Shown one piece after another: positions 5,283 to 34,260 of a stretch of DNA of 45,686 bases. Source of the stretch: a virus (Duplodnaviria > Heunggongvirae > Uroviricota > Caudoviricetes); IMG/VR virus record IMGVR_UViG_2663763339_000005, positions 1 through 45,686 of that record, one strand, 5' to 3'. A model generated the notes under the pieces. It was not told the DNA's origin and made no database searches. It saw only the letters and a program-made list of their open reading frames with translations. Position 1 is the stretch's first letter; the number at the start of each line of letters is the position of its first letter. Both the position numbers and the translations under genes were made by a program.

Positions 5283-5972
5283 CTACCCATGCTTCCTATA
5301 TGTCTGCGGCATGCTCCCAATAACCTTACCGAAGATGAACACCCGGTTCATCTCGTCTTTCTCGATCGGGTCCCACGGTGAGTAGCTTTTGTTATCAGAG
5401 ATGACCAGCAGCTTATCCTTCATCATTTGCAGGCGCTTTACATGGGCTGTGTCGTCGTACAGAAACGCATAGATACCATCACCGTCGAAAGATTTAACTG
5501 TGATATCAACGAACAGCAGATCACCTGGTTCGATCGTTCCTGACATGCTGTCACCACGCACGTTAATGATGCGGATATTTTCCGCCTTCCTACCATCGAA
5601 CATATGACGAGCATCGTCAAACGAGTACTCAACCGAGCGTAGAACTTCTACAAACTCACGGTTGATGACTCCCGGCCCAGCACTGACTTCTATATCAAGA
5701 ACGTCAATCTTGAAGTATTTGGAATGGCTGACAGTTGATTGTATTGGTTGCACTGTACTGTCTGACATATTTCCAACGCCAGAAGATAACCATTCTGCGC
5801 GCACACCCAAAGCGTTCGCGATCTCCACGATTTTAGTTGTTTGATTAGCTTTCCCTGTTTCGATTTTCTGAATAGCAGCTTGGCTAACCCCGACCAAATC
5901 CCCAAGCGCCTTTTGTGTAAGGCCTCGCGCTAATCTGGCTTCTTTAAGTCTTTCTGAGAGTGTTGTTTTCAT
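5283..5972 (-). CDS. cI-like prophage repressor (HTH_XRE + LexA-like S24 peptidase domain)
   Basis: ORF 5283..6038; start at internal Met MKTTLSERLKEARLARGLTQKALGDLVGVSQAAIQKIE (HTH); C-terminal domain with GDSM (Ser) and VKRL (Lys) autocleavage motifs; divergent from cro-like gene. Confidence 0.85.
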   Translation of the reverse strand: MKTTLSERLKEARLARGLTQKALGDLVGVSQAAIQKIETGKANQTTKIVEIANALGVRAEWLSSGVGNMSDSTVQPIQSTVSHSKYFKIDVLDIEVSAGPGVINREFVEVLRSVEYSFDDARHMFDGRKAENIRIINVRGDSMSGTIEPGDLLFVDITVKSFDGDGIYAFLYDDTAHVKRLQMMKDKLLVISDNKSYSPWDPIEKDEMNRVFIFGKVIGSMPQTYRKHG

Positions 5973-6014
5973 AGTCCAAATGTACAACCAAGGTTTTATT
6001 TCATCAAACGAAAA

Positions 6015-6048
6015 TGGTTGTTGACTAAAAACAACCATAGTTTTAATC
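6015..6048 (+). promoter_or_regulatory. Putative early-right promoter pR with operator palindrome
   Basis: TTGACT(6020-6025)-17 nt-TAATCT(6043-6048); palindrome GGTTGTTGACTAAAAACAACC overlaps -35; sits between divergent repressor and cro-like genes. Confidence 0.55.
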
Positions 6049-7002: not shown

Positions 7003-7932
7003 ATGGCAAACACTGCTGAGATATTCAATTTTCCAGTGCCGGATGCGGCACAAAAGGAGCCGCGCGTGGCAGATCTCGATGATGGTTATACGCGCATTGC
7101 AAATGAGTTGCTGGAAGCTGTGATGCTGGCCGGATTAACACAGCACCAGCTTCTGGTCTTCCTAGCTGTCATGCGCAAAACATATGGCTTTAATAAAAAA
7201 CTGGATTGGGTGAGCAACGAGCAACTGTCCGAATTGACCGGGATATTGCCGCACAAGTGTTCTGCTGCAAAAAGTGTTCTGGTAAAGCGTGGGATTTTGA
7301 TTCAGAGCGGGCGGAATATCGGTATTAATAATGTGGTCAGTGAATGGTCAACATTACCCGAATCAGGTAAGAAAAATAAAGTTTACCTGAAAGAGGTAAA
7401 TTTACCTGAATCAGGTAAGAAAAGTTTACCCAAATCAGGTAAAGGCGTTTACCCGAATCAGGTAAACACAAAAGACAAACTAACAAAAGACAATATAAAA
7501 CCTTTTTCGTCCGAGAATTCTGGCGAATCCTCTGACCAACCAGAAAACGATCTTCCTGTGGTGAAACCAGATGCTGCAATTCAGAGCGGCAGCAAGTGGG
7601 GGACAGCAGAAGACCTGACCGCCGCAGAGTGGATGTTTGACATGGTGAAGACCATCGCGCCATCAGCCAGAAAACCGAATTTTGCAGGGTGGGCTAACGA
7701 TATCCGCCTGATGCGTGAACGTGACGGACGTAACCACCGCGACATGTGTGTGCTGTTCCGCTGGGCATGCCAGGACAACTTCTGGTCCGGTAACGTGCTA
7801 AGTCCGGCCAAACTCCGCGACAAGTGGACCCAACTCGAAATCAACCGTAACAAGCAACAGGCAGGCGTGACAGCTAGCAAACCAAAACTCGACCTGACAA
7901 ACACAGACTGGATTTACGGGGTGGATCTATGA
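7003..7932 (+). CDS. Replication initiator O-like protein (contains ori iterons)
   Basis: ORF 6913..7932; start at Met 7003 preceded by GGAGG; N-terminal replisome-organiser-like domain; four iterons inside the gene; followed by lambda P. Confidence 0.8.
   Translation: MANTAEIFNFPVPDAAQKEPRVADLDDGYTRIANELLEAVMLAGLTQHQLLVFLAVMRKTYGFNKKLDWVSNEQLSELTGILPHKCSAAKSVLVKRGILIQSGRNIGINNVVSEWSTLPESGKKNKVYLKEVNLPESGKKSLPKSGKGVYPNQVNTKDKLTKDNIKPFSSENSGESSDQPENDLPVVKPDAAIQSGSKWGTAEDLTAAEWMFDMVKTIAPSARKPNFAGWANDIRLMRERDGRNHRDMCVLFRWACQDNFWSGNVLSPAKLRDKWTQLEINRNKQQAGVTASKPKLDLTNTDWIYGVDL
7353..7467 (+). repeat. Replication origin iterons within O gene (4 x ~ACC(C/T)(G/A)AATCAGGTAA) followed by A/T-rich stretch
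   Basis: Direct repeats cccgaatcaggtaa / cctgaatcaggtaa / cccaaatcaggtaa / cccgaatcaggtaa read directly in sequence. Confidence 0.8.
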
Positions 7933-8630
7933 AAAACATCGCCGCACAGATGATTAACTTTGACCGTGAGCAGATGCGTCGGATCGCCAACAACATGCCG
8001 GAACAGTACGACGAAAAGCCTCAGGTACAGCAGGTAGCGCAGATCATCAATGGTGTGTTCAGCCAGTTACTGGCAACTTTCCCGGCGAGCCTGGCTAACC
8101 GTGACCAGAATGAACTGAACGAAATCCGCCGCCAGTGGGTTCTGGCTTTCCGGGAAAACGGGATCACCACAATGGAACAGGTTAACGCTGGAATGCGCGT
8201 AGCCCGTCGGCAGAATCGACCATTTCTGCCATCACCCGGGCAGTTTGTTGCATGGTGCCGGGAAGAAGCATCCGTTATCGCCGGACTGCCAAACGTCAGC
8301 GAGCTGGTTGATATGGTTTACGAGTATTGCCGGAAGCGAGGCCTGTATCCGGATGCGGAGTCTTATCCGTGGAAATCAAACGCGCACTACTGGCTGGTTA
8401 CCAACCTGTATCAGAACATGCGGGCCAATGCGCTTACTGATGCGGAATTACGCCGTAAGGCCGCAGATGAGCTTGTCCATATGACTGCGAGAATTAACCG
8501 TGGTGAGGCGATCCCTGAACCAGTAAAACAACTTCCTGTTATGGGCGGTAGACCTCTAAATCGTGCACAGGCTCTGGCGAAGATCGCAGAAATTAAAGCT
8601 AAGTTCGGACTGAAAGGAGCAAGTGTATGA
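7929..8630 (+). CDS. P: Replication protein P (DnaB helicase loader)
   Basis: 233 aa, near-identical to remembered lambda P (MKNIAAQM.NFDREQMRRIANNMPEQYDEKPQVQQVAQIINGVFSQLL...). Confidence 0.95.
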   Translation: MKNIAAQMINFDREQMRRIANNMPEQYDEKPQVQQVAQIINGVFSQLLATFPASLANRDQNELNEIRRQWVLAFRENGITTMEQVNAGMRVARRQNRPFLPSPGQFVAWCREEASVIAGLPNVSELVDMVYEYCRKRGLYPDAESYPWKSNAHYWLVTNLYQNMRANALTDAELRRKAADELVHMTARINRGEAIPEPVKQLPVMGGRPLNRAQALAKIAEIKAKFGLKGASV

Positions 8631-8947
8631 CGGGCAAAGAGGCAATTATTCATTACCTGGGGACGCATAAGAGCTTCTGTGCACAGGACGTTGCCGCGGT
8701 AACAGGCGCAACCGTAACCAGCATAAATCAGGCTGCGGCTAAAATGGCGCGGGCAGGAATCCTGGTCGTTGATGGTAAGGTCTGGCGAACGGTGTATTAC
8801 CGGTTCGCTACCAGAGAAGAACGGGAAGGAAAGGTGAGCACGAATCTGATTTTTAAGGAGTGTCGCCAGAGTGCCGCGATGAAACGCGTATTGAGGGTAT
8901 ATAAAAGGAACATCAATGGGTACACAATGATGAAACAGGTGAGTTGA
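8627..8947 (+). CDS. ren: Ren-like protein
   Basis: 106 aa matching lambda Ren N-terminal region (MTGKEAIIHYLGTH.SFCA.DVAA.TGATVTSINQAAAKMARAG...). Confidence 0.85.
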   Translation: MTGKEAIIHYLGTHKSFCAQDVAAVTGATVTSINQAAAKMARAGILVVDGKVWRTVYYRFATREEREGKVSTNLIFKECRQSAAMKRVLRVYKRNINGYTMMKQVS

Positions 8948-8997
8948 TTTCAAACTGTAGTACAATTCTCTCCAGTTTGAACAGGAAAGAATATGCT

Positions 8998-9330
8998 ATG
9001 AACCCTTATATTTATCTTGGTGGTGCAATACTTGCAGAGGTCATTGGTACAACCTTAATGAAGTTTTCAGAAGGTTTTACACGGTTATGGCCATCTGTTG
9101 GTACAATTATTTGTTATTGTGCATCATTCTGGTTATTAGCTCAGACGCTGGCTTATATTCCTACAGGGATTGCTTATGCTATCTGGTCAGGAGTCGGTAT
9201 TGTCCTGATTAGCTTACTGTCATGGGGATTTTTCGGCCAACGGCTGGACCTGCCAGCCATTATAGGCATGATGTTGATTTGTGCCGGTGTGTTGGTTATT
9301 AATTTATTGTCACGAAGCACACCACATTAA
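8998..9330 (+). CDS. emrE: Small multidrug resistance efflux protein EmrE
   Basis: 110 aa from internal Met MNPYIYLGGAILAEVIGTTLMKFSEGFTRLWPS...; four TM helices; known moron of DLP12-type prophages. Confidence 0.92.
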   Translation: MNPYIYLGGAILAEVIGTTLMKFSEGFTRLWPSVGTIICYCASFWLLAQTLAYIPTGIAYAIWSGVGIVLISLLSWGFFGQRLDLPAIIGMMLICAGVLVINLLSRSTPH

Positions 9331-9360
9331 AAATAATTTGTTTCTAAACGACTAAAATAT

Positions 9361-9400
9361 GGAGGCTCTTATATTTATATGAGCCTCGTTTTATGCTTTT
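9361..9400 (+). terminator. Rho-independent terminator after emrE
   Basis: Hairpin GAGGCTC...GAGCCTC followed by GTTTTATGCTTTTTG. Confidence 0.65.
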
Positions 9401-9587
9401 TGTTAATGTCTTTATTTTTTTTATGTATTCTTTTGTGCTTTCAAGATTATGGCGTAAGAAAATTGCAATACGATTATTGTTGTATATTCAAGATAATGTG
9501 ACCTTAATTGTCTTTTTAAATAAAAATTAAACAAAAATTATATCTCACCACTAAGGTTTATAAAAGCATACGTTAGCAGGTGTCACC

Positions 9588-11114
9588 ATGAAAAAAGCCA
9601 TAGCATATATGCGATTTTCATCACCAGGTCAGATGTCTGGCGACTCATTAAACCGACAGAGAAGACTTATTGCTGAATGGTTAAAGGTAAATAGTGATTA
9701 TTATCTTGATACCATAACATATGAAGATTTAGGATTAAGTGCATTCAAAGGAAAGCATGCACAATCAGGAGCTTTTTCGGAATTTTTAGATGCTATAGAG
9801 CATGGTTATATATTGCCAGGAACTACATTGTTAGTTGAAAGTCTGGACAGACTTTCAAGAGAAAAAGTCGGTGAAGCGATTGAGCGTCTGAAATTGATTT
9901 TGAATCACGGTATTGATGTTATAACTCTTTGCGATAATACAGTCTATAATATTGACTCTTTGAATGATCCATATTCATTAATAAAAGCCATACTTATAGC
10001 ACAAAGGGCAAATGAAGAAAGCGAGATAAAGTCAAGTCGGGTTAAATTATCATGGAAGAAAAAACGGCAGGATGCACTGGAGTCAGGCACGATTATGACG
10101 GCGTCTTGTCCGAGATGGCTCTCCTTAGATGACAAAAGAACGGCTTTTGTTCCAGACCCCGACAGGGTGAAAACTATTGAGCTAATTTTTAAACTCAGGA
10201 TGGAAAGGCGCTCATTGAATGCAATAGCCAAGTATTTAAATGATCATGCTGTAAAGAATTTCTCAGGAAAAGAAAGTGCATGGGGACCTTCTGTAATTGA
10301 AAAATTATTAGCGAATAAAGCTCTGATAGGTATATGCGTACCTTCATATCGTGCAAGAGGTAAAGGAATAAGTGAAATCGCTGGCTATTATCCCAGAGTC
10401 ATATCAGATGATTTGTTTTACGCTGTGCAGGAAATTCGGTTGGCACCTTTTGGTATTAGCAATAGTAGCAAAAACCCTATGTTGATAAATCTACTTCGAA
10501 CAGTTATGAAGTGCGAGGCTTGTGGTAATACCATGATTGTTCATGCGGTATCTGGAAGTTTGCATGGCTATTATGTTTGTCCGATGAGAAGACTGCATCG
10601 ATGTGACAGGCCATCAATAAAGAGAGATTTGGTTGATTATAATATCATTAATGAGTTGCTTTTTAATTGTAGTAAAATCCAACCAGTTGAAAACAAGAAA
10701 GATGCTAATGAAACTTTAGAGTTGAAAATTATTGAGCTCCAGATGAAAATTAATAATTTAATTGCTGCATTATCTGTTGCGCCTGAAGTTACCGCTATAG
10801 CAGAAAAAATCAGAGTATTAGATAAGGAATTACGAAGGGCTTCTGTATCATTAAAAACTTTGAAGAGTAAAGCGGTGAGCTCACTTGGTGATTTTCATGC
10901 TATTGACTTAACCAGTAAAAATGGGCGAGAGCTATGTCGTACACTTGCCTATAAAACATTCGAAAAAATCATAATCAATACAGATAATAAAACCTGTGAT
11001 ATCTATTTTATGAATGGCATTGTTTTTAAACACTATCCTTTAATGAAAACAATATCCGCCCAGCAGGCGATAAGTACTCTCAAATATATGGTTGATGGTG
11101 AGGTTTATTTTTGA
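9588..11114 (+). CDS. ybcK: Large serine recombinase (resolvase-domain N-terminus, zinc ribbon, coiled coil), YbcK-like
   Basis: 508 aa; N-terminal resolvase fold with catalytic Ser in AIAYMRFSSPGQ; cysteine cluster CEACGN...CPMRRLHRC; AT-rich codon usage indicating foreign origin. Confidence 0.85.
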   Translation: MKKAIAYMRFSSPGQMSGDSLNRQRRLIAEWLKVNSDYYLDTITYEDLGLSAFKGKHAQSGAFSEFLDAIEHGYILPGTTLLVESLDRLSREKVGEAIERLKLILNHGIDVITLCDNTVYNIDSLNDPYSLIKAILIAQRANEESEIKSSRVKLSWKKKRQDALESGTIMTASCPRWLSLDDKRTAFVPDPDRVKTIELIFKLRMERRSLNAIAKYLNDHAVKNFSGKESAWGPSVIEKLLANKALIGICVPSYRARGKGISEIAGYYPRVISDDLFYAVQEIRLAPFGISNSSKNPMLINLLRTVMKCEACGNTMIVHAVSGSLHGYYVCPMRRLHRCDRPSIKRDLVDYNIINELLFNCSKIQPVENKKDANETLELKIIELQMKINNLIAALSVAPEVTAIAEKIRVLDKELRRASVSLKTLKSKAVSSLGDFHAIDLTSKNGRELCRTLAYKTFEKIIINTDNKTCDIYFMNGIVFKHYPLMKTISAQQAISTLKYMVDGEVYF

Positions 11115-11225
11115 GTAATAATCACTTTTTCAACCGTGCTATAGTAAGAAAGTTAGGTAAGTACAATAAAATTATCTATCCTGAACGAAGCGTCCTGAGC
11201 TATGGTTTTACTATAGGGACTGCCA

Positions 11226-11543
11226 ATGGATGCTGGCGTTCTCGTTCTAGCAGTTCAACAATCCCCAATCACAAAACAATTCACTGATAACGAACTTTGC
11301 ACACTCGCCTGGTTATGGCGAGCAGGGAATGTGATGTTAATTGCCTACCAGAACGTTACTCATCTTCTTCAGGATGCGGAGCATGGTGAAGCTGGTCACT
11401 TCACTTCCATCGAGCAAGAATATCCCCAGATACTCAACAGAGCGCGAGCAATCCTCGTCCGAGAAACGGCACATGTAAAACTTCAGCCGTGGCAGGATGA
11501 TAAGTGGAGTCGAGTATTGCCGTATTTGCGTCAAATCTGTTAG
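11226..11543 (+). CDS. Hypothetical protein
   Basis: 105-aa ORF in AT-rich island between ybcK and the next ORF; no family recognised. Confidence 0.3.
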   Translation: MDAGVLVLAVQQSPITKQFTDNELCTLAWLWRAGNVMLIAYQNVTHLLQDAEHGEAGHFTSIEQEYPQILNRARAILVRETAHVKLQPWQDDKWSRVLPYLRQIC

Positions 11544-11747
11544 GAGTATAGCCGCCAGCCATGAGTGTTGTATTAAAACAAGGATGTCTATATATGGGAT
11601 AGCGAGAGTATGAATATCAGTTATTTTGAGAGTTAACTGATTGTGAAATTAGTTTTTTTCACAAACGAGTGGGGTTACTATGATGAGTGTTCTAATGCAT
11701 AGGGAACACCTAATTTTTTCAATGAATTCAAATTGATAGGATCAAAA

Positions 11748-12677
11748 ATGGCACAACAGAGAACTACCTCCCTCAGATCCATACCTTTAGACTTAGATGT
11801 TAAGCAAGAGGCTGTCATTAACGGTATAGAAATGGGGGTACTCGATAACGGAATTCCGTACCTTACTCAGAATGGGTTGGCAAATGTTTGTGGTGTTCAG
11901 CGTTTGCGAATCAAGGAAATTACCGATGAGTGGGCTCAATCCGTTGAGAACGGTATTTTCAAAAAAGGAAGAATGACTTTTATTGGTACATATCTTCTTA
12001 ATGAAGGTTTTACAGATGAAAAACTTTATATACCAATAATTCGAAATGGTGTTGAGTACCATGCTTATCCAGATGTTGTATGCATGGCTATACTTGAATA
12101 CTATGCCTTTGAAGCAAAACAAGCAGAAAGTGAGACTGCAATTAGATCTTACAGAGAGCTTGCTAAAAAAGGCCTCAAGACATTTATATACGAGGCGCTA
12201 AAATATCAACCGGAGGACCCGTGGAGGCATTACCATGACAGAGTATCTTTATTAAAAGATAAGGGAACCATACCTGATGGGTATTTCATTATATTTAATG
12301 AAATTGCAGGTATGATGGTAGATCTCATCAATGCTGGATTAGCGATTAATCAGCATACCGTACCTGATGGCAGTGTTGGTTCTTGCTGGGCGCGTCACTG
12401 GAAAGCAAAGGGGTTAGCAACAGAATTTGGAGAAAGAGTAGACTGTGAGCATTATTACCCTGAAGATTTTCTTCAGGCAAGTTCCAATCCTCAGATCATT
12501 AATGCCTATCCTGATTCTGCATTGTCAGAGTTTCGTAGATGGTTTAAGCATGAATATTTAACCACAAAGTTCCCACCGTATATTCTTAAAAAATCAAACG
12601 TGCTTCCTGGTGGTACAGAAGATGCTAATCGTCTGATAGAAGCTTTCAAAAAATCAGAGCTAGAAAATAAACCATAA
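11748..12677 (+). CDS. Hypothetical phage moron protein (possible antirepressor-like N-terminal domain)
   Basis: ORF 11733..12677; start at Met 11748 preceded by AGGA; ~309 aa; AT-rich; occupies the slot where K-12 DLP12 has ybcL/ybcM; function unassigned. Confidence 0.45.
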   Translation: MAQQRTTSLRSIPLDLDVKQEAVINGIEMGVLDNGIPYLTQNGLANVCGVQRLRIKEITDEWAQSVENGIFKKGRMTFIGTYLLNEGFTDEKLYIPIIRNGVEYHAYPDVVCMAILEYYAFEAKQAESETAIRSYRELAKKGLKTFIYEALKYQPEDPWRHYHDRVSLLKDKGTIPDGYFIIFNEIAGMMVDLINAGLAINQHTVPDGSVGSCWARHWKAKGLATEFGERVDCEHYYPEDFLQASSNPQIINAYPDSALSEFRRWFKHEYLTTKFPPYILKKSNVLPGGTEDANRLIEAFKKSELENKP

Positions 12678-12873
12678 TTGTTTTTTGGCTTTTGATTTTA
12701 CATAATCATTTTGCCATAATCATGTCATCGGAGCCTGAACAACTCCGGTGACTTCTGCGCTAAACGGGGACGTTTATGCGCACATACAATCCAAACTCTC
12801 TTCTCCCTTCACAGATGCAGAGATGCACCTGCGATTTTTTGCATCCAGCGTTTGACCTCTGCGGAGGTGAAGC

Positions 12874-13329
12874 GTGAATCTCCCACAAGATGGCATCAAA
12901 TTACATCGCGGTAACTTCACCGCTATCGGTCGGCAGATCCAGCCTTATCTGGAGGAGGGCAAATGCTTTCGCATGGTGCTTAAACCGTGGCGTGAGAAAC
13001 GCAGTCTTTCCCAGAATGCACTCAGCCACATGTGGTACAGCGAAATCAGTGAATACCTCATCAACAGGGGTAAAACGTTCGCCACTCCAGCTTGGGTAAA
13101 AGATGCTCTCAAACACACATATCTCGGTTATGAAACCAAAGACCTGGTTGATGTCGTAACCGGTGATATCACCACTATCCAGTCGTTACGCCATACCTCC
13201 GATCTTGATACCGGAGAGATGTATGTCTTCCTGTGTAAGGTTGAAGCCTGGGCGGTGAATATTGGCTGCCACCTGACTATTCCGCAGAGCTGCGAGTTCC
13301 AGCTGCTCCGTGACAAGCAGGAGGCGTAA
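12874..13329 (+). CDS. ybcN: NinB/YbcN-family protein
   Basis: 151 aa recalled as matching E. coli YbcN; begins the nin-like gene string with translationally coupled downstream genes. Confidence 0.8.
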
Positions 13330-13499
13330 TGGCTACACCGCTTATTCGTGTCATGAACGGACACATCTACAGAGTATCAAATCGTCGTAAGCGTAAGCCT
13401 GAGCCGAAGCCATCCGAAATACCAACACTGCTCGGATATACCGCTAGCCTGGTTGATAAAAAATGGTTGCGACTGGCAGCAAGGAGGAATCATGGCTGA
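13329..13499 (+). CDS. ninE: NinE-like small protein
   Basis: 56-aa ORF ([56 protein letters not shown]) read from sequence; TAATG overlap with ybcN stop; below six-frame track cutoff. Confidence 0.75.
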   Translation: MATPLIRVMNGHIYRVSNRRKRKPEPKPSEIPTLLGYTASLVDKKWLRLAARRNHG

Positions 13500-18834: not shown

Positions 18835-19050
18835 ATTTTTGCGGGTCCTTTCCGGCGATCCGACAGGTTACGGGGCGGCGACCTCGCGGGTTTTCGCTAT
18901 TTATGAAAATTTTCCGGTTTAAGGCGTTTCCGTTCTTCTTCGTCATAACTTAATGTTTTTATTTAAAATACCCTCTGAAAAGAAAGGAAACGACAGGTGC
19001 TGAAAGCGAGCTTTTTGGCCTCTGTCGTTTCCTTTCTCTGTTTTTGTCCG
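18835..19050 (+). other. Helper prophage cos site (cosQ-cosN-cosB); cosN 12-nt cohesive end GGGCGGCGACCT at 18863-18874
   Basis: Sequence gcgggtcctttccggcgatccgacaggttacgGGGCGGCGACCTcgcgggttttcgctatttatgaaaattttccggtttaagg... matches the remembered lambda genome ends; immediately upstream of Nu1. Confidence 0.93.
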
Positions 19051-24995: not shown

Positions 24996-25005
24996 GGATT
25001 TTTTT

Positions 25006-25281
25006 ATGTCGATTTACACAACCGCCCAGCTGCTGGCGGCAAATGAGCAGAAATTTAAGTTTGATCCGCTGTTTCTGCGTCTCTTTTTCCGTGAGAGCTA
25101 TCCCTTCACCACGGAGAAAGTCTATCTCTCACAAATTCCGGGACTGGTAAACATGGCGCTGTACGTTTCGCCGATTGTTTCCGGTGAGGTTATCCGTTCC
25201 CGTGGCGGATCCACCTCTGAATTTACACCGGGATATGTCAAGCCCAAGCACTTAGCATGGCTTTCTGAGGCTTTCGTGTAG
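25006..25281 (+). pseudogene. E: Major capsid protein E, 5' fragment (codons 1-81 intact, then 9 element-derived codons and stop), disrupted by insertion
   Basis: MSIYTTAQLLAANEQKFKFDPLFLRLFFRESYPFTTEKVYLSQIPGLVNMALYVSPIVSGEVIRSRGGSTSEFTPGYVKPKH matches lambda gpE N-terminus; divergence begins exactly after 25250. Confidence 0.92.
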
Positions 25282-25413
25282 TTGCTGGTTTTTACACTTA
25301 ATCTTTTGATAATAAAGAATAAGTTTATCTGGCGCTTTCACTGGATTTTCCTCGTTATCTGTGTGTTGCAATCATCTCTGTATTGCAGCTTGTATTGCTT
25401 TTTGGGGCTAAAA

Positions 25414-26649
25414 ATGGCTGGCGAGAACAAACTGAGCGACAAAGCACTTAAAGGATATCTGGGGAAACCCAGAGAAAAGCAGATCACCATTGCTGATGGA
25501 AAGGGGCTTTCTATTCGTGTGAGTACCAAGGGGGCTGTGAGCTTTGTTTTCTTCTACAGGTTAGCAGGTGGCCGGGCTGCTCCGGTCTGGCTAACGTTGG
25601 GTAAATATCCTGATATGTCACTCAAACAGGCAAGGGAAAAGCGCGACGAGTGCCGTGGTTGGTTGGCTGACAAACGTGATCCGCGTATCCAGATTAAGAT
25701 TCAGGCTGAAGAACGCTTAAAGCCGGTCACAGTGGAGGATGCACTAAATTACTGGTATGAAAATTACTGTAAGGTGCGTCGTAAAACTCATGCTGTAACG
25801 CTTGGCAGATTTCGAAAGCATATCTTTCCCTATATCGGTCATTTGCCCGTAAATGACACTCACCTATATGAATGGCTGGACTGTTTTGACCGAATTAAAC
25901 GTAATGCACCAGTTATGGCGGCGTATGTTTTTTCTGACACTAAATTAGCTCTTCGTTTTTGTCGGGTACGCCAGTACGCGACGTGTGATGCTTTAAAGGA
26001 TTTGCGCATGAGTGATGTGGGGCAGATTGCAGGTAAGCGGGATCGGGTTCTGGATGAAGCCGAACTGGGCCAGCTCTGGAAGGCAATTTTTGTCGAGCCT
26101 GATTTAAAACTAATGTCTGAATACACGCGAAAAATGTTTGTGCTTTGTACAGTATTTGGATGTCGAATGAGTGAAGCCCGATTATCTGAATGGAGCGAAT
26201 GGGATCTCGAAAGTTGGGTTTGGACTGTACCAAAAGATCACTCAAAAACTGGTGTTGAAATCGTCAGACCAGTACCTGAAATTCTACGACAGTGGGTAAC
26301 GGATGTTCACGAAGAGACAAAACATACTGGTTATGTGCTGGGAAGTCTGCGAATTAGAGAAAGCGTAAGCAAGATTGGGGGGAAAATCGGTAAACGTTTG
26401 GGCCATGAAAAACAATGGTCACTACACGACCTTAGAAGAACGCTATCTACTCATCTAAGTGATCTCGGTGTTGAATTTTATGTAGTAGAACAACTGTTAG
26501 GCCATGCGCTACCTGGCGTGGCAGGTGTTTACAACCGGAGTAAGTTTATGGCTAAAAAACTGGATGCTCTGGAACTCTGGACTACATATCTCAATAGCAT
26601 CGCAGGTGCTGATTCAAAAGTGACAATCCTCAAACAAAAGGCTGGTTAA
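25414..26649 (+). CDS. Tyrosine integrase, P4-like family (element integrase)
   Basis: ORF 25282..26649; start at Met 25414 (MAGENKLSDKALKGY...); C-terminal HDLRRT...GH...Y catalytic motifs; adjacent to left attachment junction. Confidence 0.88.
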   Translation: MAGENKLSDKALKGYLGKPREKQITIADGKGLSIRVSTKGAVSFVFFYRLAGGRAAPVWLTLGKYPDMSLKQAREKRDECRGWLADKRDPRIQIKIQAEERLKPVTVEDALNYWYENYCKVRRKTHAVTLGRFRKHIFPYIGHLPVNDTHLYEWLDCFDRIKRNAPVMAAYVFSDTKLALRFCRVRQYATCDALKDLRMSDVGQIAGKRDRVLDEAELGQLWKAIFVEPDLKLMSEYTRKMFVLCTVFGCRMSEARLSEWSEWDLESWVWTVPKDHSKTGVEIVRPVPEILRQWVTDVHEETKHTGYVLGSLRIRESVSKIGGKIGKRLGHEKQWSLHDLRRTLSTHLSDLGVEFYVVEQLLGHALPGVAGVYNRSKFMAKKLDALELWTTYLNSIAGADSKVTILKQKAG

Positions 26650-26650
26650 C

Positions 26651-26878
26651 ATGAAAAAAATGGCAATTGTTGATAAAAAGGGTCTGGAGTACATTCCTAA
26701 CATCGATCGTATGATCCGTGAGAAAGAATGTCGGGAGCTAACCACTCTTGCAAACAGCACACGCTGGAAGCTGGAGAAGGAAGGAAAATTTCCTAAGCGG
26801 ATCAAGATTGGTTCCACTGCTGTTGCATATCGTCTTTCAGAAGTGCAGGCATGGATTCGAGGTGAGTGGGTAGTTTAA
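26651..26878 (+). CDS. AlpA-like transcriptional regulator/excisionase
   Basis: 75 aa; ...RELTTLANSTRWKLEKEGKFPKRIKIGSTAVAYRLSEVQAWI is a typical AlpA HTH; directly downstream of integrase. Confidence 0.8.
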   Translation: MKKMAIVDKKGLEYIPNIDRMIREKECRELTTLANSTRWKLEKEGKFPKRIKIGSTAVAYRLSEVQAWIRGEWVV

Positions 26879-26904
26879 ATTATCTCAGAATAAAATATTA
26901 TGAA

Positions 26905-26938
26905 TTACTGATTTGAGAATTTGTACTCAAATCAGTAA
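26905..26938. terminator. Bidirectional hairpin between alpA and convergent membrane-protein gene
   Basis: TTACTGATTTGAG...CTCAAATCAGTAA 13-bp inverted repeat in AT-rich context. Confidence 0.5.
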
Positions 26939-26947
26939 TAACATTCT

Positions 26948-27484
26948 TTATAAGAGATTAAATCCAAATAAAGAGTAATCATATACCGGGGTGCATTGCA
27001 TCCCACTGAATATGCTGATGTTTTTTTCTGTTTCTATCCTTTTTTCAATAAGTTGTTGTATATTTTTACAGTACAATTTGTGTGTGATGTTATTATCGTA
27101 AGCCTGATATAGCAACGTCAATGTTGACGCTAGGAAACATACAGATAAAATTAAAATAATATATGCAGTTTTTTTATTTTTTGTCCATGATCTATTTGTT
27201 TGTGAAATATAAAGAATTCTGAGGTGGATAATGGTGAGAGACAATAGCAGGCCACTCAATAAAATAAGTATTGGGTTTGCGTATTTTATTAATGGTTGAG
27301 AGCAAAAAACTATTATAGCTCCTGTGACTGCGTATGAGAAAAAGGAGTGATTAAACTTCTTACTCCTTCTCTCAAGTATTTTAATTTCATCTTGTGTGGG
27401 GGTTTTAGATGCCTCTAATATAAGTTTATTGAATGTTTCTGTTATCTTGTTTTTTGTGTTTGTGGCTATTTTTTTTAGATTCAT
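26948..27484 (-). CDS. Hypothetical membrane protein (element cargo)
   Basis: 178 aa, very AT-rich, hydrophobic segments (AVTGAIIVFCSQPLI..., ILILLSGLLLSLTIIHL..., AYIILILSVCFLASTLTLL); opposite strand to core element genes. Confidence 0.5.
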   Translation of the reverse strand: MNLKKIATNTKNKITETFNKLILEASKTPTQDEIKILERRSKKFNHSFFSYAVTGAIIVFCSQPLIKYANPILILLSGLLLSLTIIHLRILYISQTNRSWTKNKKTAYIILILSVCFLASTLTLLYQAYDNNITHKLYCKNIQQLIEKRIETEKNISIFSGMQCTPVYDYSLFGFNLL

Positions 27485-27834
27485 AGCATTCTAACTCCCT
27501 TAACTTATTTATTACTTTCTCTTTATGATAAGAGAGGGGAATGACTTGGTAAAGTGATTTGTCATTAATAATGATAATCCTTGCGATAAATATTTCTGCA
27601 AGTTATTTATCTGTTTGTTGCTATCTTGTTAAGCGTTGGGTGTGGTTTATGTTTGGAGCGACTTTATTTAATCGTGATTTTATGGATTTATATTTATATC
27701 CTGTAAGATAAGCGCATGTTAGTTCAGGAGTAGTGTCAGATAAAATTATTCGGAGTAGAACTACCTTTTCTGTTTATTGCCAGTATTTACATAGCAATGC
27801 GCCGTAGTTACTCACATCACGGCGCTGATACTAA

Positions 27835-28137
27835 TTATTCAGATTCTTTGGCTTTACGCCGCTGGAGTTCTTCACGAGCGACGGCTACGAGTTGCCCGAT
27901 TTCCTCCGCTGCCTTGATGCCGATTTGTTCGACCTTAGCTAAGGCATCCAGTGAAGACACGAGGGGATTTTCTCCGCTTCCTTCTGCCTGGCGGCGGGCG
28001 ATCTCACCGCGCATGGCGGTTACTATGAATCCGGCGTTGCTTTCGCCGTCCAGTTTTACGGATTCCATGCCCTCCATAACATCGTGGGGAACCCTGATCG
28101 TTGTCATTTGCGATTTTGCATTTTTGTATACAGACAT
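27835..28137 (-). CDS. Putative ribbon-helix-helix transcriptional repressor of the element
   Basis: 100 aa; N-terminal TTIRVPHDVMEGMESVKL...GFIVTAMRGEIARRQ fits beta-strand/helix/helix RHH pattern; divergent from operon containing primase across an operator-rich region. Confidence 0.5.
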   Translation of the reverse strand: MSVYKNAKSQMTTIRVPHDVMEGMESVKLDGESNAGFIVTAMRGEIARRQAEGSGENPLVSSLDALAKVEQIGIKAAEEIGQLVAVAREELQRRKAKESE

Positions 28138-28139
28138 AG

Positions 28140-28345
28140 TTAATCACCAATTTGTTATGTGTATATCACTATACACAAAAGTGAGATATAAAAACACTTG
28201 CAATGTATATCACCACAATATAATGTATATCTCACATTATGGTAGCTATGTATCTCACAATGATCGATTCATAAAAACGACGAAACCCGGCAGTGCGCGA
28301 ACACTAACCGGGCTTCTAACCAAACCGTTAAACGAGGTAACGACT
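28140..28345. promoter_or_regulatory. Operator-rich divergent promoter region of the element
   Basis: Repeated TGTATATC(A/T)CAC-like motifs in both orientations (tgtgtatatcactatacaca, gtgagatata, tgtatatcacc, tgtatatctcac, tgtatctcac). Confidence 0.55.
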
Positions 28346-28711
28346 ATGGCTGGAACACAGCATACCCAAACTCACCCTAAATTTATATACATCTTTCTGG
28401 CGCTACATCGCGATCGCATAGCAGATGGAGCAACTACGGTACATGTAGCCGCTGACACGCTGGTTGATGCCCGCAAGATGGTTAAGGAGATGGGCTATAC
28501 TGCGGCTTTCTGGAAAGGGCGGGAAGAAAACACGCTGTTTATTCAGAAATGTGAAAACAATTTCATCTGGCGTTTTATCGCCCTGAGTACGGCACAACCG
28601 CGCGTGATTACCATCGAGGCCACCAGCGAACAGGAAGCCCGCCAGCAATCCCCAACTGGCTGCGTGATGATATTCGCCGCCCGTATTCGTCAGGAGGTGT
28701 GCCATGAATGA
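28346..28711 (+). CDS. Hypothetical protein, first gene of element rightward operon
   Basis: ORF 27797..28711 trimmed to Met 28346 preceded by GAGG; 121 aa; internally repeated small domain; function unknown. Confidence 0.45.
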   Translation: MAGTQHTQTHPKFIYIFLALHRDRIADGATTVHVAADTLVDARKMVKEMGYTAAFWKGREENTLFIQKCENNFIWRFIALSTAQPRVITIEATSEQEARQQSPTGCVMIFAARIRQEVCHE

Positions 28712-28928
28712 TCTTTATTTTAAAGTGCTGACACATGCTGAAAACGCGCTCGTTTGTGGCAAAAATATGCGAGAAATCTTATCAACTTGGCTTGATGGGA
28801 CAACAAATGCGGAACACGATGAACGGGATGCTAATTTAGCTGGAGCGTTAATTACGTTACTTGATCCTGTCATCAAAGAGCTGGATGAAGCTATAAAAAT
28901 ACACGACCAGAGCTATACCGGAGAATAA
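28704..28928 (+). CDS. Hypothetical protein
   Basis: 74-aa ORF translationally coupled to upstream gene. Confidence 0.4.
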   Translation: MNDLYFKVLTHAENALVCGKNMREILSTWLDGTTNAEHDERDANLAGALITLLDPVIKELDEAIKIHDQSYTGE

Positions 28929-28930
28929 AA

Positions 28931-29218
28931 ATGAAAAATAAATTTTCTGGCTTTATTGCCAGCGGTCAAACTCATTCAAAAATCAGCCTTGGGGATATTT
29001 TCAAAGATAGCTATGGCTATCGAGTAAAGATTATTTCGGTTGATGATCGCCGTGTCTCTTATTTGCGTGATGGTTATGATTTTGAATGTGTTATGCCGCG
29101 TCAGCAGTTCGAAAGAGATTTCATTCTGGTAAAAAATTGCAAGACAGATAATCAGAGGCGTGCCGCAGGCTATATCCGCAAAATTCGGGCAATGTTAGTT
29201 GCCGGAGGTAACAAATGA
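28931..29218 (+). CDS. Hypothetical protein
   Basis: 95-aa ORF immediately upstream of and overlapping primase start. Confidence 0.4.
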   Translation: MKNKFSGFIASGQTHSKISLGDIFKDSYGYRVKIISVDDRRVSYLRDGYDFECVMPRQQFERDFILVKNCKTDNQRRAAGYIRKIRAMLVAGGNK

Positions 29219-31035
29219 AACGTGCTCCGAACTTAAAATACCAACCGCGCGACAAAATGACAGAAGTCATCATTTTTGCTGGCAGTGATGCCTGGAGCCA
29301 TGCAAAAGAATGGAATGAATGGGCGGGTAAGCATATTGCAGCAGATGATACACCACCAGTAATTCTGGGTACGGAACAACTGGAAAACCTGGATGATATG
29401 CAAATTATCGATGAAGGCCGTCATTATGTGCGTGTTTATCGTGCCGGAAAGATCGCAGAGAAAAATCTGACGAAGGTTGCGACATTACTTGCTATTGCAG
29501 GCGTAAAGGAAGCACGTTGTTACCGTAGCTTTGTTGATCGAGAGCCTGAAGACTGGACTCCGCGCCTTGTCGGCCTAAAAGCTGAAGCGGAGCATGGGGA
29601 AAGTCTGGTGATTGAACTGCCAGTGAAGAAGGCAGAGCGCAAAAATGACGAGCGTGCTTCATCTTTGGCGTTGAATCAGATGGGGGCCAGCCAGCGCGGT
29701 GAAGTTCTCCTGGCACATTACGGCGGCGAACTGGCAATCAATGCCGACTCTGACACCGTTCATCATTACAACGGCGTTGTATGGGAGCCGGTTCAGGATA
29801 AAGAGTTACAGCGTGCTATGGCGCAGATTTTCATTGATGCGGAGATCAGCTATTCGCAGAACGCCATTAAATCGGCGGTAGATACCATGAAGTTAAGTTT
29901 GCCTGTAATGGGGAATACAGCCCGTAACCTGATTGGATTCAGTAACGGGGTATTTGATACCAGAACAGGTAATTTTCGGGATCATAACAAAAACGACTGG
30001 TTGTTAATTGCCAGTGAATTACCTTTCAGCCCACCAGCAGAGGGGGAAACGCTGGCAACACATGCGCCGAATTTCTGGAAGTGGTTGCGCCGTTCGGTGG
30101 CTGAGAATGACCGCAAGGCAGATCGCGTACTGGCGGCATTATTCATGGTGCTGGCGAACCGGTACGACTGGCAGTTATTCATTGAGGTAACAGGGCCGGG
30201 GGGAAGTGGTAAAAGCGTGATGGCGGAGATTTGCACCATGCTGGCGGGTAAGGCTAATACAGTATCAGCAAGCATGAAGGCGCTGGAAGATGCAAGGGAA
30301 CGTGCGTTAGTGGTTGGCTTTTCGCTGATTATCATGCCGGATATGACCCGCTACGCTGGTGATGGGGCAGGGATTAAGGCCATTACAGGCGGTGACAAGG
30401 TGGCAATTGACCCGAAACACAAAGCCCCCTATTCAACGCGTATTCCGGCAGTAGTGCTGGCGGTTAACAATAACGCCATGTCATTCAGTGACCGCAGCGG
30501 GGGGATCTCACGTCGTCGGGTGATATTCAATTTTTCGGAAGTTGTACCGGAGAACGAACGCGATTCGATGCTGGCGGAAAAAATAGAAGGTGAGCTGGCG
30601 GTAGTGATTCGTCATCTGCTTACACGGTTTGCTGATCAGGACGAAGCCAGACGCCTGTTATATGAGCAGCAGAAATCTGAAGAAGCACTGGCGATAAAGC
30701 GAGAGGGGGATTCGCTGGTGGACTTCTGCGGCTATCTCATGGCATCGGTAATGTGTGATGGCCTGTTAGTGGGTAATGCTGAAATTGTGCCATTCAGCCC
30801 ACGCAGGTATCTCTATCATGCCTATCTGGCTTATATGAGGGCACATGGGTTTGGTAAACCTGTAACACTGACGCGCTTCGGTAAAGATATGCCGGGGGCA
30901 ATGGCGGAATATGGCAGGGAGTATATGAAACGGAAAACGAAGCACGGTTTGCGTTCAAACGTGACACTGACGGAGGAATCAGAAGACTGGATGCCATCAT
31001 GTGTATCGGTCACTAATGACGATAGCAAAAATTAA
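29215..31035 (+). CDS. Primase/helicase, phage-plasmid P4-family (D5_N + SF3 helicase-like C-terminal domain)
   Basis: 606 aa; Walker A GPGGSGKS; region NGVFDTRTGNFRDHNKNDW...; followed by iteron array. Confidence 0.85.
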   Translation: MKRAPNLKYQPRDKMTEVIIFAGSDAWSHAKEWNEWAGKHIAADDTPPVILGTEQLENLDDMQIIDEGRHYVRVYRAGKIAEKNLTKVATLLAIAGVKEARCYRSFVDREPEDWTPRLVGLKAEAEHGESLVIELPVKKAERKNDERASSLALNQMGASQRGEVLLAHYGGELAINADSDTVHHYNGVVWEPVQDKELQRAMAQIFIDAEISYSQNAIKSAVDTMKLSLPVMGNTARNLIGFSNGVFDTRTGNFRDHNKNDWLLIASELPFSPPAEGETLATHAPNFWKWLRRSVAENDRKADRVLAALFMVLANRYDWQLFIEVTGPGGSGKSVMAEICTMLAGKANTVSASMKALEDARERALVVGFSLIIMPDMTRYAGDGAGIKAITGGDKVAIDPKHKAPYSTRIPAVVLAVNNNAMSFSDRSGGISRRRVIFNFSEVVPENERDSMLAEKIEGELAVVIRHLLTRFADQDEARRLLYEQQKSEEALAIKREGDSLVDFCGYLMASVMCDGLLVGNAEIVPFSPRRYLYHAYLAYMRAHGFGKPVTLTRFGKDMPGAMAEYGREYMKRKTKHGLRSNVTLTEESEDWMPSCVSVTNDDSKN

Positions 31036-31048
31036 ACTTATGGAATAA

Positions 31049-31280
31049 CTGTTCACCACTGTTCACCCTGTCATAAATATCTTTTATATCAGTATATTAT
31101 AGGGTGAACAGTTATTTATGAACTGTTCACCAAACTATTCACTGTTCACCTTTTTGATTGTTTATTGAGCTTCAAGGGTGAACAGTGGTGAACAGTTGGT
31201 GAATAGTTTTTGTGAAACTGTTCACCCATTAACATTATGAATTAAAAGAGAAAATATCAAAAGGTGAACAGGTGAAGGGT
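31049..31280. repeat. Element replication origin: ~10 copies of TGTTCACC/GGTGAACA iterons in both orientations
   Basis: ctgttcaccactgttcaccc, gggtgaacagtt, gaactgttcacc, cactgttcacc, gggtgaacagtggtgaacagttggtgaatag, actgttcaccc, aggtgaacaggtgaaggg read directly. Confidence 0.8.
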
Positions 31281-31322
31281 TAAAACGCAAAAATTTTAAT
31301 TTACTGCTGTGAGATAAAGCCT

Positions 31323-31568
31323 ATGACAGCGAAGCACACAAAAAAATCACAATCGCACGCCCTTGATTTGACGGAACACTGGTTAAGGGTGTCGATAAAA
31401 ATCATCGACCGCAACGCCGGGGAAGGATACGCGAAAGCACATCCCGAACTGATTAGCGCATTCATGACAACGGCGGCTGCAAACTTTGCCACTCTGACCG
31501 AACGGGAGATTGCTGAAGCGGAGGAAGTGACAACAATCAATATTAAGTCCGGAGAGCAGGCAGCATGA
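31323..31568 (+). CDS. Hypothetical protein
   Basis: 81-aa ORF downstream of ori, coupled to SSB gene. Confidence 0.4.
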   Translation: MTAKHTKKSQSHALDLTEHWLRVSIKIIDRNAGEGYAKAHPELISAFMTTAAANFATLTEREIAEAEEVTTINIKSGEQAA

Positions 31569-32014
31569 CGGCGCAAATATCAGTTTACGGGCGGTTGGTG
31601 GACGACCCGCAGACAAAACAGACCAGCAAGGGCACCCCCATGACGCTGGCGCGTATGGCGGTATCACTGCCCTGCAGTCAGTCGGATGACGGTCAGGCGA
31701 CGATGTGGTTATCTGTCCTGGCGTTTGGCAGACAAGCCGACGCGCTGGCAAAGCATCACAAAGGCGAACTCCTGAGCGTGGCGGGTAACATGCAGATGAG
31801 CCAGTGGACTGGACAGAACGGCGAAACGCGGCAGGGCTGGCAGGTTATCGCAGACAGCGTAATCAGTGCGCGATCGGTGCGACCGGGCGGCAATAAAGGC
31901 CAACAGGGGCAGGCTACTGACGCACTGAACAGAGCAAAACAACAGGCAGATCAGCAAGGAAGCCAGCCACCAGTGGGAGATAATGAGCAATGGGGAGATG
32001 ATATCCCGTTTTAA
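31565..32014 (+). CDS. Single-stranded DNA-binding protein (SSB)
   Basis: 149 aa; OB-fold N-terminus, Gly/Gln-rich linker and acidic C-terminal tail ...GDDIPF characteristic of SSB. Confidence 0.85.
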   Translation: MTAQISVYGRLVDDPQTKQTSKGTPMTLARMAVSLPCSQSDDGQATMWLSVLAFGRQADALAKHHKGELLSVAGNMQMSQWTGQNGETRQGWQVIADSVISARSVRPGGNKGQQGQATDALNRAKQQADQQGSQPPVGDNEQWGDDIPF

Positions 32015-32231
32015 ATATTGCCAATAAAAAAAGGCCGGAAAAAATAAATTTTCCGGCATGCTACATAAATCCCGACCAAAGGGAGTGAAGATATTAACAC
32101 TAATTTTCCGCACTGAAGTTGTCACCCCAAAACTTTATACAACATTGCACTCGGTTGCATGTATTCGCATGACAAATATCGGTGATAGCATATATCCACA
32201 ATTATTTTTAATGAATGCAAAGAGGATGCGT

Positions 32232-33272
32232 ATGGTTGATTTATATTCGCCTACTCAGCTTGTACAGGTGGTTAATGCTGTAGATGTACAAAAACAACTA
32301 AATGCGTTGTTTACCAGTTTGTTTTTTACTCGCTCGGTAATGTTTGAATCGCGCGATATTATTCTTGATACAATCGACGATCCAAATATCCCAATTGCAG
32401 CGTTTTGTTCTCCTATGGTGGGTAGTAAAGTTTCACGTGACGAAGGGTACGAATCAAAAACAATTCGTCCAGGCTATATGAAGCCGAAAAGCAGCATTGA
32501 TCCAAATAAGTTAGCTGTGCGCCCTGCTGGTGTATCACCTGAGCAATACAATGCTTTTGGGGCGCGTAATATTAAAGTTAAACAGGCGATTGTAAATCAA
32601 GCTAAAGCTATTCGTGCACGTATTGAATGGCTTGCTGTTCAGGCAATCACAACGGGGAAAAATATCATTGAGGGCGATGGTATTGAACGTTATGAGCTGG
32701 ACTGGAATATTAAACCACAAAATATCATCACTCAGTCTGGCGGTGCTGAGTGGTCAGGTAAGGATAAAGAAACTTTTGATCCAAATGATGATATTGAGAG
32801 CTACGCAGAATTTAGTGAGGGCGTCACTAATATTATCATTATGGGCGGTAATGTATGGAAGAAATACCGTTCATTCAGAGCGATAAAAGAGGCTCTGGAT
32901 ACCCGTCGTGGTTCTAATTCCGAACTGGAAACGGCCCTTAAAGACCTTGGTGATTCGGTGAGTTTTAAAGGGTATATGGGCGATGTTGCGATTGTTGTTT
33001 ACAGCGGGCGTTATACCGACGAGGACGGAACAGAAAAACATTTCCTTGATCCTGATTTGATGGTGCTTGGCAATACGGCTCTTCAGGGGATTGTCGCCTA
33101 TGGCGGTATTCAGGATCCGGAGCTAATCCGAATGGGGCTGACTAAAGCCGAACTTGCACCGAAAAACTATATTGTGCCTGGTGATCCGGCTATTGAATAT
33201 GTGCAGACACATTCAGCACCACAGCCAATACCGGCCCGCATCAATCGTTTTGTTACCGTTCGCATTGGCTAA
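32232..33272 (+). CDS. Major capsid protein, lambda gpE family (element-encoded divergent paralogue)
   Basis: ORF 32058..33272; start Met 32232 preceded by AGAGGA; clear alignment to lambda E (ITQSGGAEWSGKDKETFDPNDDIESYAEF...NIIIMGGNVWKKYRSFRAIKEALDTRRGSNSELETALKDLG..YKG..GDVAIVVYSG); ~346 aa versus 341 for lambda E. Confidence 0.88.
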   Translation: MVDLYSPTQLVQVVNAVDVQKQLNALFTSLFFTRSVMFESRDIILDTIDDPNIPIAAFCSPMVGSKVSRDEGYESKTIRPGYMKPKSSIDPNKLAVRPAGVSPEQYNAFGARNIKVKQAIVNQAKAIRARIEWLAVQAITTGKNIIEGDGIERYELDWNIKPQNIITQSGGAEWSGKDKETFDPNDDIESYAEFSEGVTNIIIMGGNVWKKYRSFRAIKEALDTRRGSNSELETALKDLGDSVSFKGYMGDVAIVVYSGRYTDEDGTEKHFLDPDLMVLGNTALQGIVAYGGIQDPELIRMGLTKAELAPKNYIVPGDPAIEYVQTHSAPQPIPARINRFVTVRIG

Positions 33273-33281
33273 GGGGGAGCA

Positions 33282-33623
33282 ATGGCTACTCATTACACTG
33301 AACTCATGGCTGGCACTGAAGCACTGGTGACTACGCTGGGGATATTTTCAGCTAATAAAGGGGTAATTCCTGCATTTACGCCACTGATGCAGGAAGATGC
33401 AACAGGTGCACTGGTAGTATGGGATGGTTCGAGCGTAGGTAAAGCGGTTTATGTTTCCGCTGTACAAATCGACACCGCGAAAAAAACACAGGCTCAGGTC
33501 TATAAGACAGGTGTCTTAAATGTTGATGCTCTGAACTGGCCTGAGTCTGTTAAAGAACTGTCAGTAAAGGTTGCAGCGTTTGTTGGCTCAGGTATTTCTG
33601 TTCAGCCGCTGGCTCGTGTGTAA
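33282..33623 (+). CDS. Head decoration protein, lambda gpD family (element-encoded divergent paralogue)
   Basis: 113 aa; PLMQEDATGALVVWDGSSVGKAVYVSAV...YKTGVLNVDALNWPE...FVGSGISV aligns with gp[28 protein letters not shown]...[15 protein letters not shown]...FAGTAISI. Confidence 0.8.
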   Translation: MATHYTELMAGTEALVTTLGIFSANKGVIPAFTPLMQEDATGALVVWDGSSVGKAVYVSAVQIDTAKKTQAQVYKTGVLNVDALNWPESVKELSVKVAAFVGSGISVQPLARV

Positions 33624-33634
33624 AGGGGGATACA

Positions 33635-34018: not shown

Positions 34019-34029
34019 TGAAATTAGGG

Positions 34030-34250: not shown

Positions 34251-34260
34251 TGAGGCGGCT

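Follow-up and report, generated by a model that had tools for sequence, protein, structure and literature searches.

We analysed a 45,686-nucleotide stretch of viral DNA (Caudoviricetes; IMG/VR record IMGVR_UViG_2663763339_000005, positions 1 to 45,686), called the window below, and focused on the block at 8998–12677; all positions are window coordinates unless another locus is named. The whole window is a lambda-like prophage, with an integrase at 1–1164 followed by replication, lysis, head and tail genes, and this DLP12-like lambdoid prophage holds the block between ren and ybcN. On identical DNA from other Escherichia coli, RefSeq annotates, in this order, ren (frameshifted), emrE, ylcJ (frameshifted), a recombinase family protein (ybcK), a P22AR C-terminal domain protein, a protein of 309 amino acids (aa), a small open reading frame (ORF) and ybcN. 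A preliminary description, made from the letters alone, had seen here an AT-rich island with two unassigned proteins of 105 and about 309 aa, and had guessed that a variable slot of this kind carries defence genes. The AT-rich block is real, and both GC values and ORF positions agree with that description: the GC content is 0.31–0.41 across 9000–11200 and 0.375–0.40 across 11600–12800, with a peak of 0.46 at 11200–11600, over the remnant of a P22AR_C gene, and values of 0.47–0.55 in the flanks. The guess about defence was also right, as the 309-aa protein is, judged from its sequence, a full-length member of the BstA family of abortive-infection proteins, and a PD-Lambda-1 system and a HEPN candidate occur elsewhere in the same slot. 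The island is thus real, yet already explained by known families.

The PADLOC BstA model (PDLC02356) matched the 309-aa protein with an E-value of 3.8e-121, residues 15–309 aligning to profile positions 5–291 of 292. Searching phages with tblastn, we found a match of 40% identity, covering 99% of the length, to BstA of Salmonella phage BTP1, whose annotation reads "BstA abortive infection system, replication inhibitor". In a five-way alignment, the protein was 41% identical to BstA-BTP1, 38–39% to the BstA-Ec type, 51% to a Pseudomonas phage homolog and 61% to a homolog from NCTC9022, which is listed by Owen et al. (PMC8585504); 61 columns over both halves were invariant, and both domains aligned end to end. 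The identical database protein P0001 and all close homologs carry precomputed assignments of PF26567, the BstA-like C-terminal domain, a model absent from our local copy of Pfam, and newer RefSeq annotation names the exact protein (WP_000068668.1) "BstA C-terminal domain-containing protein". The earlier label of unknown function does not hold in the face of this clear family match and RefSeq name. A large protein database contained 1,250 homologs, and relatives that are 76–80% identical in DNA are 90–92% identical in protein, as expected under purifying selection.

An AlphaFold2 model built on 68 homologs had a mean predicted local distance difference test (pLDDT) score of 86, with only residues 1–13 disordered. 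Neither Foldseek with this model nor a sequence search gave any match in the PDB, and no solved relative of the BstA C-terminal domain was found there; of the profile and structure searches that had been proposed for this protein, the former gave a full-length BstA match but the latter no PDB match by Foldseek. PADLOC also reported a weak "HTH" (helix–turn–helix) match (E-value 2.1e-8), and the assignment of the N-terminal part as a KilA-N-like DNA-binding domain is plausible but weakly supported.

BstA proteins are constitutively expressed in lysogens, where they co-localise with the replicating DNA of infecting phages, block phage DNA replication and protect at the population level by abortive infection (Owen et al. 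2021, PMC8585504). According to the same study, three family members all defended and homologs only approximately 40% identical were interchangeable in defence. Ten BstA-carrying lambda-like prophages, all at a tRNA-Arg gene, have been catalogued in E. coli (Hochhauser et al. 2023, PMC10121019). The prophage equivalent to ours in GE3 sits between tRNA-Arg and ompT, the DLP12 site, and the window prophage matches that catalogue in type and integration site; a BstA at this place is already known and is found by standard defence-finder models. Locus L002, from 2012C-4431, represents the BstA-Ec type, as it contains an exact match to NW_761, a primer published for cloning. The window gene is not the tested BstA-Ec itself, the primer being absent from the window and the protein 38% identical. 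When BstA-BTP1 was expressed in MG1655, lambda vir, phi80, P1vir and T7 were inhibited, whereas T4 and T5 were not. What had been an unknown moron becomes an annotated defence gene.

We also observed a different BstA clade in DEC5E (locus L012, 3456–4385) and NCTC9022 (locus L003, 4572–5504), 54–63% identical to the window protein in tblastn. These genes belong to an element next to yfhL that is not lambdoid and also encodes SNF2 and VRR-NUC proteins, a DNA polymerase and a tyrosine integrase, and BstA in E. coli is therefore not limited to lambda-like prophages.

The bstA gene and the features around it are listed in Table 1.

Table 1. Features of the block between ren and ybcN, in window coordinates
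Feature	Position	Strand	Basis
emrE, small multidrug resistance (SMR) family multidrug efflux pump	8998–9330	+	NCBIfam EmrE, Pfam, K-12 identity
Intrinsic-terminator-like hairpin after emrE (GGAGGCTC...GAGCCTC, then GTTTTATGCTTTT)	9362–9400	+	RNA fold
ybcK, large serine recombinase	9588–11114	+	Pfam domains, K-12 identity
Segment replacing K-12 ybcL/ybcM	11154–12689		blastn against K-12
105-aa ORF, 3' remnant of Bro-N/P22AR_C antirepressor-like gene	11226–11543	+	Pfam, alignment
bstA moron cassette, cargo differing from GPEC709	11542–12691	+	blastn breakpoints against six slot variants
Two abutting palindromes with 8-bp arms	11616–11664	unstranded	sequence reading
Predicted sigma-70 promoter of bstA (TTTTCA-17-TATGAT)	11656–11684	+	consensus scan, 9/12 positions
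Candidate aba: AGGGAACACCT (11701–11711) and AGAGAACTACCT (11758–11769)	11701–11769	+	57 bp start to start, bracketing ATG
bstA, 309-aa BstA-family abortive-infection protein	11748–12677	+	PADLOC, alignment, PF26567, RefSeq
Right boundary common to all slot variants: 10-bp-stem hairpin (12724–12752) and small ylcH-like ORF	12692–12876	+

Homology to K-12, computed with blastn, covered 8716–11153 and then 12690–13400, confirming that the K-12 genes ybcL and ybcM are replaced here, as had been noted from the sequence. The similarity to ST131 extended to 11399 and that to GPEC709 to 11541; the left edge of the slot varies, and all six variants resume at 12690–12692, 13 nt past the bstA stop codon, at a boundary whose hairpin has a folding z score of −3.57. 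In comparison with the emrE-ylcJ-ybcK-ybcL-ybcM-ylcH-ybcN region of K-12 DLP12, the window has the same locus and order, with flanks 96–97% identical in DNA, but carries a P22AR_C stump and bstA (1.5 kb) in place of ybcL/ybcM (1.8 kb), in a prophage that keeps its replication, lysis, head and tail genes. The bstA cassette itself spans approximately 1.15 kb. Among 5,426 complete E. coli genomes, 106 hold at least 80% of 11115–12770, and conservation of the cassette is 99% or higher in about 106–132 complete genomes.

The 105-aa ORF, earlier left unassigned, matches the Pfam family P22_AR_C (E-value 7.7e-14) as its only domain, with Bro-N not present. In TW08637 and EC20-72C-1, both lacking emrE and ybcK, a 202-aa homolog contains Bro-N and P22AR_C, and the ORF corresponds to residues 101–198 of the TW08637 protein at 78% identity; homology in DNA to full-length Bro-N/P22AR_C genes starts abruptly at 11227–11239. 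Because it has P22AR_C only, aligns to residues 101–198 of the full-length protein and starts its homology so abruptly, the ORF is, from its sequence, the 3' stump of a gene truncated at its 5' side, where the emrE-ybcK block ends on the right, and no new protein. The island is a mosaic of the emrE-ylcJ-ybcK block, this stump of an antirepressor-like gene and a self-contained bstA moron of about 1.15 kb.

The cargo of the slot differs among prophages: ybcL/ybcM in K-12, an alpha/beta hydrolase in ST131, a 260-aa protein of unknown function in GPEC709, a TagO/VasI-like protein in ET490, a HEPN protein (PADLOC candidate PDC-M28A) with a partner ORF in TW08637, and a 169-aa protein in EC20-72C-1, where PD-Lambda-1 (E-value 1.9e-198) lies upstream of the Bro-N/P22AR_C gene. 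Like the window bstA, PD-Lambda-1 (DUF4041/T5orf172) and the HEPN candidate PDC-M28A are one- or two-gene defence morons in the same slot upstream of ylcH-ybcN, around Bro-N/P22AR_C, but their proteins and mechanisms are unrelated to BstA. Known defence genes are among the cargo that DLP12-like prophages carry in the slot between ren and ybcN. TW08637 and EC20-72C-1 have window 12716–12859 in duplicate, with the second copy upstream of their Bro-N/P22AR_C gene. We infer that the short common boundary sequence would allow modules to be exchanged by homologous recombination, and such exchange at conserved nin-region boundaries, not YbcK, most likely brought in the cassette.

Three proteins in the slot had no Pfam or PADLOC match: the 260-aa protein of GPEC709 (locus L009, 4110–4892), the 169-aa protein of EC20-72C-1 (L010, 3547–4056) and a 133-aa protein of TW08637 (L008, 4516–4917) that adjoins the HEPN protein. 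They are candidate defence genes because the same slot elsewhere holds BstA, with PD-Lambda-1 present in the same EC20-72C-1 region.

The genes to the left of the cassette had been identified correctly. The emrE-ylcJ-ybcK block is present in most E. coli, K-12 included. EmrE scores 240.6 bits against the NCBIfam model NF042984 (curated cut-off 226), matches Pfam Multi_Drug_Res (E-value 2.1e-35) and is identical to K-12 EmrE at 109 of 110 residues (99%). The block had also been said to have its own terminator: a hairpin at 9362–9388 followed by a U tract does lie after emrE (dG −14 kcal/mol, z score −3.44, 1 of 200 shuffles as stable; overlooked by the consensus scan for its loop of more than 8 nt), but that scan found no canonical terminator after the 309-aa gene. 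YbcK matches the Pfam families Resolvase, Recombinase and Zn_ribbon_recom, all above their cut-offs, and is 98% identical to K-12 YbcK (497/508). By sequence reading, its catalytic-type motifs YMRFS(11)S and LDRLSR are intact, with R9/S11 (R-x-S) and D87-R88-R91 (D-R-x-x-R), and its domains and catalytic serine motif mark it as a large serine recombinase. The suggested search for its recombination sites around the cassette found no suitable direct or inverted repeats in 8400–13400 or in the whole window, only short chance-level matches, although a repeat search may miss serine recombinase att sites, which can be very short or degenerate. A 9-bp inverted repeat just 3' of ybcK (CTATAGTAA/TTACTATAG) was rejected as a YbcK site, its fold being no better than that of shuffled sequences (z score +0.7). 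We found no study of YbcK recombination activity in the literature.

The position of bstA differs from that in the better-known members of the family. In BTP1, the BstA-Ec type and the Pseudomonas phage homolog, the gene lies directly downstream of cI, a placement described as strikingly conserved and as frequent, not universal (PMC8585504), and the BTP1 gene is thought to use the cI promoter. In the window, bstA belongs to the nin region instead: it follows O, P, ren, emrE and ybcK, between the replication and the nin/Q genes, and is 5.7 kb from the repressor, whose region is near 5283–6038. The relatives with 90–92% identity, from IMG/VR contigs, are likewise found behind replication protein P, ahead of DUF1367- or DUF968-type genes. 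The window gene has a predicted sigma-70 promoter of its own, and a −10-like TATCAT/TATGAT box is found at the same place in the relatives. A nin-region BstA clade with its own predicted promoter departs from the cI-adjacent layout thought typical and goes beyond the literature that we found.

A palindrome upstream of the 309-aa gene, TTGTGAAA-N8-TTTCACAA, which had been pointed out earlier, is present at 11641–11664, 84–107 nt upstream of the ATG, but is not conserved in the closest bstA relatives. It overlaps the predicted −35 box, and a second palindrome, ATCAGTTA-N10-TAACTGAT at 11616–11641, abuts it. At least one such palindrome appeared in the 204-bp spacer in 5.9% of Markov simulations, a marginal significance, and the RNA fold of the region is unremarkable (z score −1.8). 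We rejected the palindrome as a conserved operator, as the 90%-identical relatives do not keep it, their homology to the window not beginning before 11687–11701, and as a CRP site, as its TGTGA and TCACA are spaced by 12 nt, not 6.

In BTP1, the prophage encoding BstA escapes it by means of aba, a 63-bp DNA element at −29 to +34 of the bstA start codon (PMC8585504). The element has been defined only for BTP1, functions at the DNA level and works only against the BstA that it belongs to; it needs the CCCGCC direct repeats at its ends, and a single base change in either repeat abolished its function. In each of 54 dereplicated BstA loci, we searched −120 to +120 of the start codon, at every offset from 30 to 100 bp, for direct repeats that agree at 7 or more of 8 positions; the loci of the repeat analysis were L002, L004, L012 and L015–L094. 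As a control, the BTP1 repeats were recovered, with CCCGCCA at −28 and +28. At an offset of 57 bp, repeats were found in 29 of the 54 loci, whereas 2.8 were expected and none of 300 shuffles gave more than 8; these counts are not fully independent, as the loci are mutually related. Offsets of 56 and 58 bp gave 7 and 6 loci, and control regions at offset 57 gave 3–7. Upstream copies mostly fall between −50 and −34, and downstream copies in codons 3–9, a part of the protein that is variable and modelled as disordered. The repeat sequence is clade-specific, examples being ATCCCT, CAGCAGGCCGCC, TTGAAGGCCACC, GCAGCACCCC and AAAAGAGATCACCCT: a locus's own upstream and downstream copies matched at 7 or more of 8 positions in 16 of 55 cases, compared with 3.8% of cross pairs, and none of 2,000 permutations reached the observed count.

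By analogy with BTP1, a locus-specific repeat with a spacing of 57 bp is what a cognate aba acting at the DNA level would look like. We lean slightly towards the view that the repeat sequence sets the cognate specificity, in which case aba would be predictable for every BstA clade. For the nin-region clade, the predicted aba is AGAGAAC(A/G)(C/A)CC(T) at about −47 and +10, and the pair bracketing the window start codon would be a naturally imperfect copy of it. The window pair agrees at 6 of 7 positions in the core (AGgGAAC vs. AGaGAAC), at best 6 of 8 without gaps and 10 of 12 with one gap. The relatives at loci L031, L032 and L035 have a perfect AGAGAAC core in both copies; the upstream variant AGGGAAC is also found in another group from large prophage contigs (L025–L030). 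The DNA homology between the window and its relatives, beginning at 11687–11701, starts at the upstream repeat. We found no paper on such a family-wide 57-bp architecture in our incomplete coverage of the literature, nor any post-2021 work on BstA mechanism or the architecture of aba. The 57-bp signature gives testable aba candidates for dozens of BstA variants, and how aba switches BstA off is a question left by the 2021 paper.

Side by side, the window BstA and BstA-BTP1 are alike in length (309 vs. 307 aa), two-domain layout, common invariant motifs and prophage origin, and in both direct repeats bracket the start codon, 57 bp apart in the window and 56 bp in BTP1; the repeat sequences are unrelated, AGAGAAC-type and imperfect in the window and CCCGCC in BTP1, and the window gene sits behind P, ren, emrE and ybcK rather than directly after cI. 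BstA-Ec (NCTC10963 type, with 2012C-4431 as proxy) belongs to the same family and the same host species, and in the proxy the two copies of an ATCCCTaCA/ATCCCTgCA repeat lie on either side of the start codon at a spacing of 57 bp; it differs in being 301 aa long (RefSeq) and cI-adjacent in another lambdoid prophage.

Taken together, we consider it very probable that the window contains a DLP12-like nin-region mosaic at tRNA-Arg that carries a BstA abortive-infection moron, most likely acquired by homologous exchange, with a candidate aba to spare the prophage. Family membership, cassette boundaries, distribution among genomes, purifying selection and the start-codon repeats were computed here, and the mode of action is inferred from PMC8585504. 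By that analogy, BstA would be made in the lysogen, probably from its own promoter, and upon infection by a susceptible foreign phage would go to the replicating phage DNA via its N-terminal DNA-binding domain. There it would block DNA replication, and the cell would die without releasing progeny. A cognate aba overlapping the start of bstA would spare the lytic replication of the encoding prophage, the most likely candidate here being the 57-bp-spaced pair. The lambda RexAB system, discussed in PMC8585504, is similarly a prophage abortive-infection system that is expressed in lysogens and excludes other phages, but it consists of two proteins, acts by membrane depolarisation, is encoded at the cI locus without an aba-type element and is unrelated to BstA in sequence and mechanism. 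Three points weigh against our interpretation: bstA is not downstream of cI, so its expression in the lysogen rests on a 9/12 promoter match; the window repeat pair is imperfect, while one base change kills the BTP1 aba; and the protein, compared by sequence, is only approximately 40% identical to the experimentally tested BstA proteins.

The weak promoter match and the imperfect repeats would also fit an inert passenger, that is, a cassette that is silent or non-functional in a defective, much-rearranged prophage with a degenerate aba; the apparent interruption of the major capsid gene by an element of about 11 kb and insertion sequence (IS)-disrupted copies of the cassette in some genomes agree with this as well. 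We regard it as unlikely, as over 100 genomes have the ORF intact and almost identical, purifying selection across the clade is strong, defence by BstA needs no viable prophage, and the AGGGAAC variant of the upstream repeat recurs in the prophage contigs L025–L030. Still less probable is that the 309-aa protein is a KilA-N/Bro-type prophage regulator (an antirepressor or transcription factor) forming one antirepressor module with the P22AR_C stump: the weak PADLOC HTH match and the antirepressor-type neighbour would suit such a role, but the BstA match is full length and includes the BstA-specific C-terminal domain, tested members equally divergent from each other all defend, and bstA and P22AR_C are separate modules, the same P22AR_C gene preceding unrelated cargo elsewhere. 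That an active YbcK captures, inverts or excises the downstream cassette and so makes the slot variable by site-specific recombination is hardly credible: ybcK lies directly upstream of the slot with its catalytic-type motifs intact, but neither the cassette nor ybcK is flanked by pairs of direct or inverted repeats, the left breakpoint varies between variants (11153, 11399, 11541), the slot is equally variable in prophages without ybcK, and the 90%-identical bstA relatives in nin regions adjoin unrelated genes.

Elsewhere in the window, at approximately 25000–36200, an element of about 11 kb appears to split the lambda-E-like major capsid gene of the prophage. It has an integrase ORF at 25282–26649, a primase at 29215–31035 and a second capsid gene at 32058–33272; by analogy with AST215, with 98% identical DNA, it would encode a tyrosine integrase, an HTH regulator, an Icd-like protein, a primase, SSB and its own major capsid and head-decoration proteins. 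By this likeness it resembles a capsid-forming phage satellite that has integrated into its likely helper's capsid gene. Downstream of the primase gene, at 31034–31249, clustered GGTGAACAGT inverted repeats resemble origin iterons. The element also contains a 161-nt copy (34043–34203), 76% identical to 18841–19001 just upstream of the small terminase gene of the prophage; the copied sequence may be a cos-like packaging site.

In the GE3 prophage, a SIR2-family gene (locus L006, 5866–7467) adjoins the repressor and may be a second defence moron; the immunity region of the window differs and is without the SIR2 gene. The O-like replication gene of the window contains, at 7354–7470, three 22-nt direct repeats (TTACCYGAATCAGGTAAGAAAA) spaced by approximately 47 bp; these are lambda-type origin iterons, suggesting that the prophage origin is intact.

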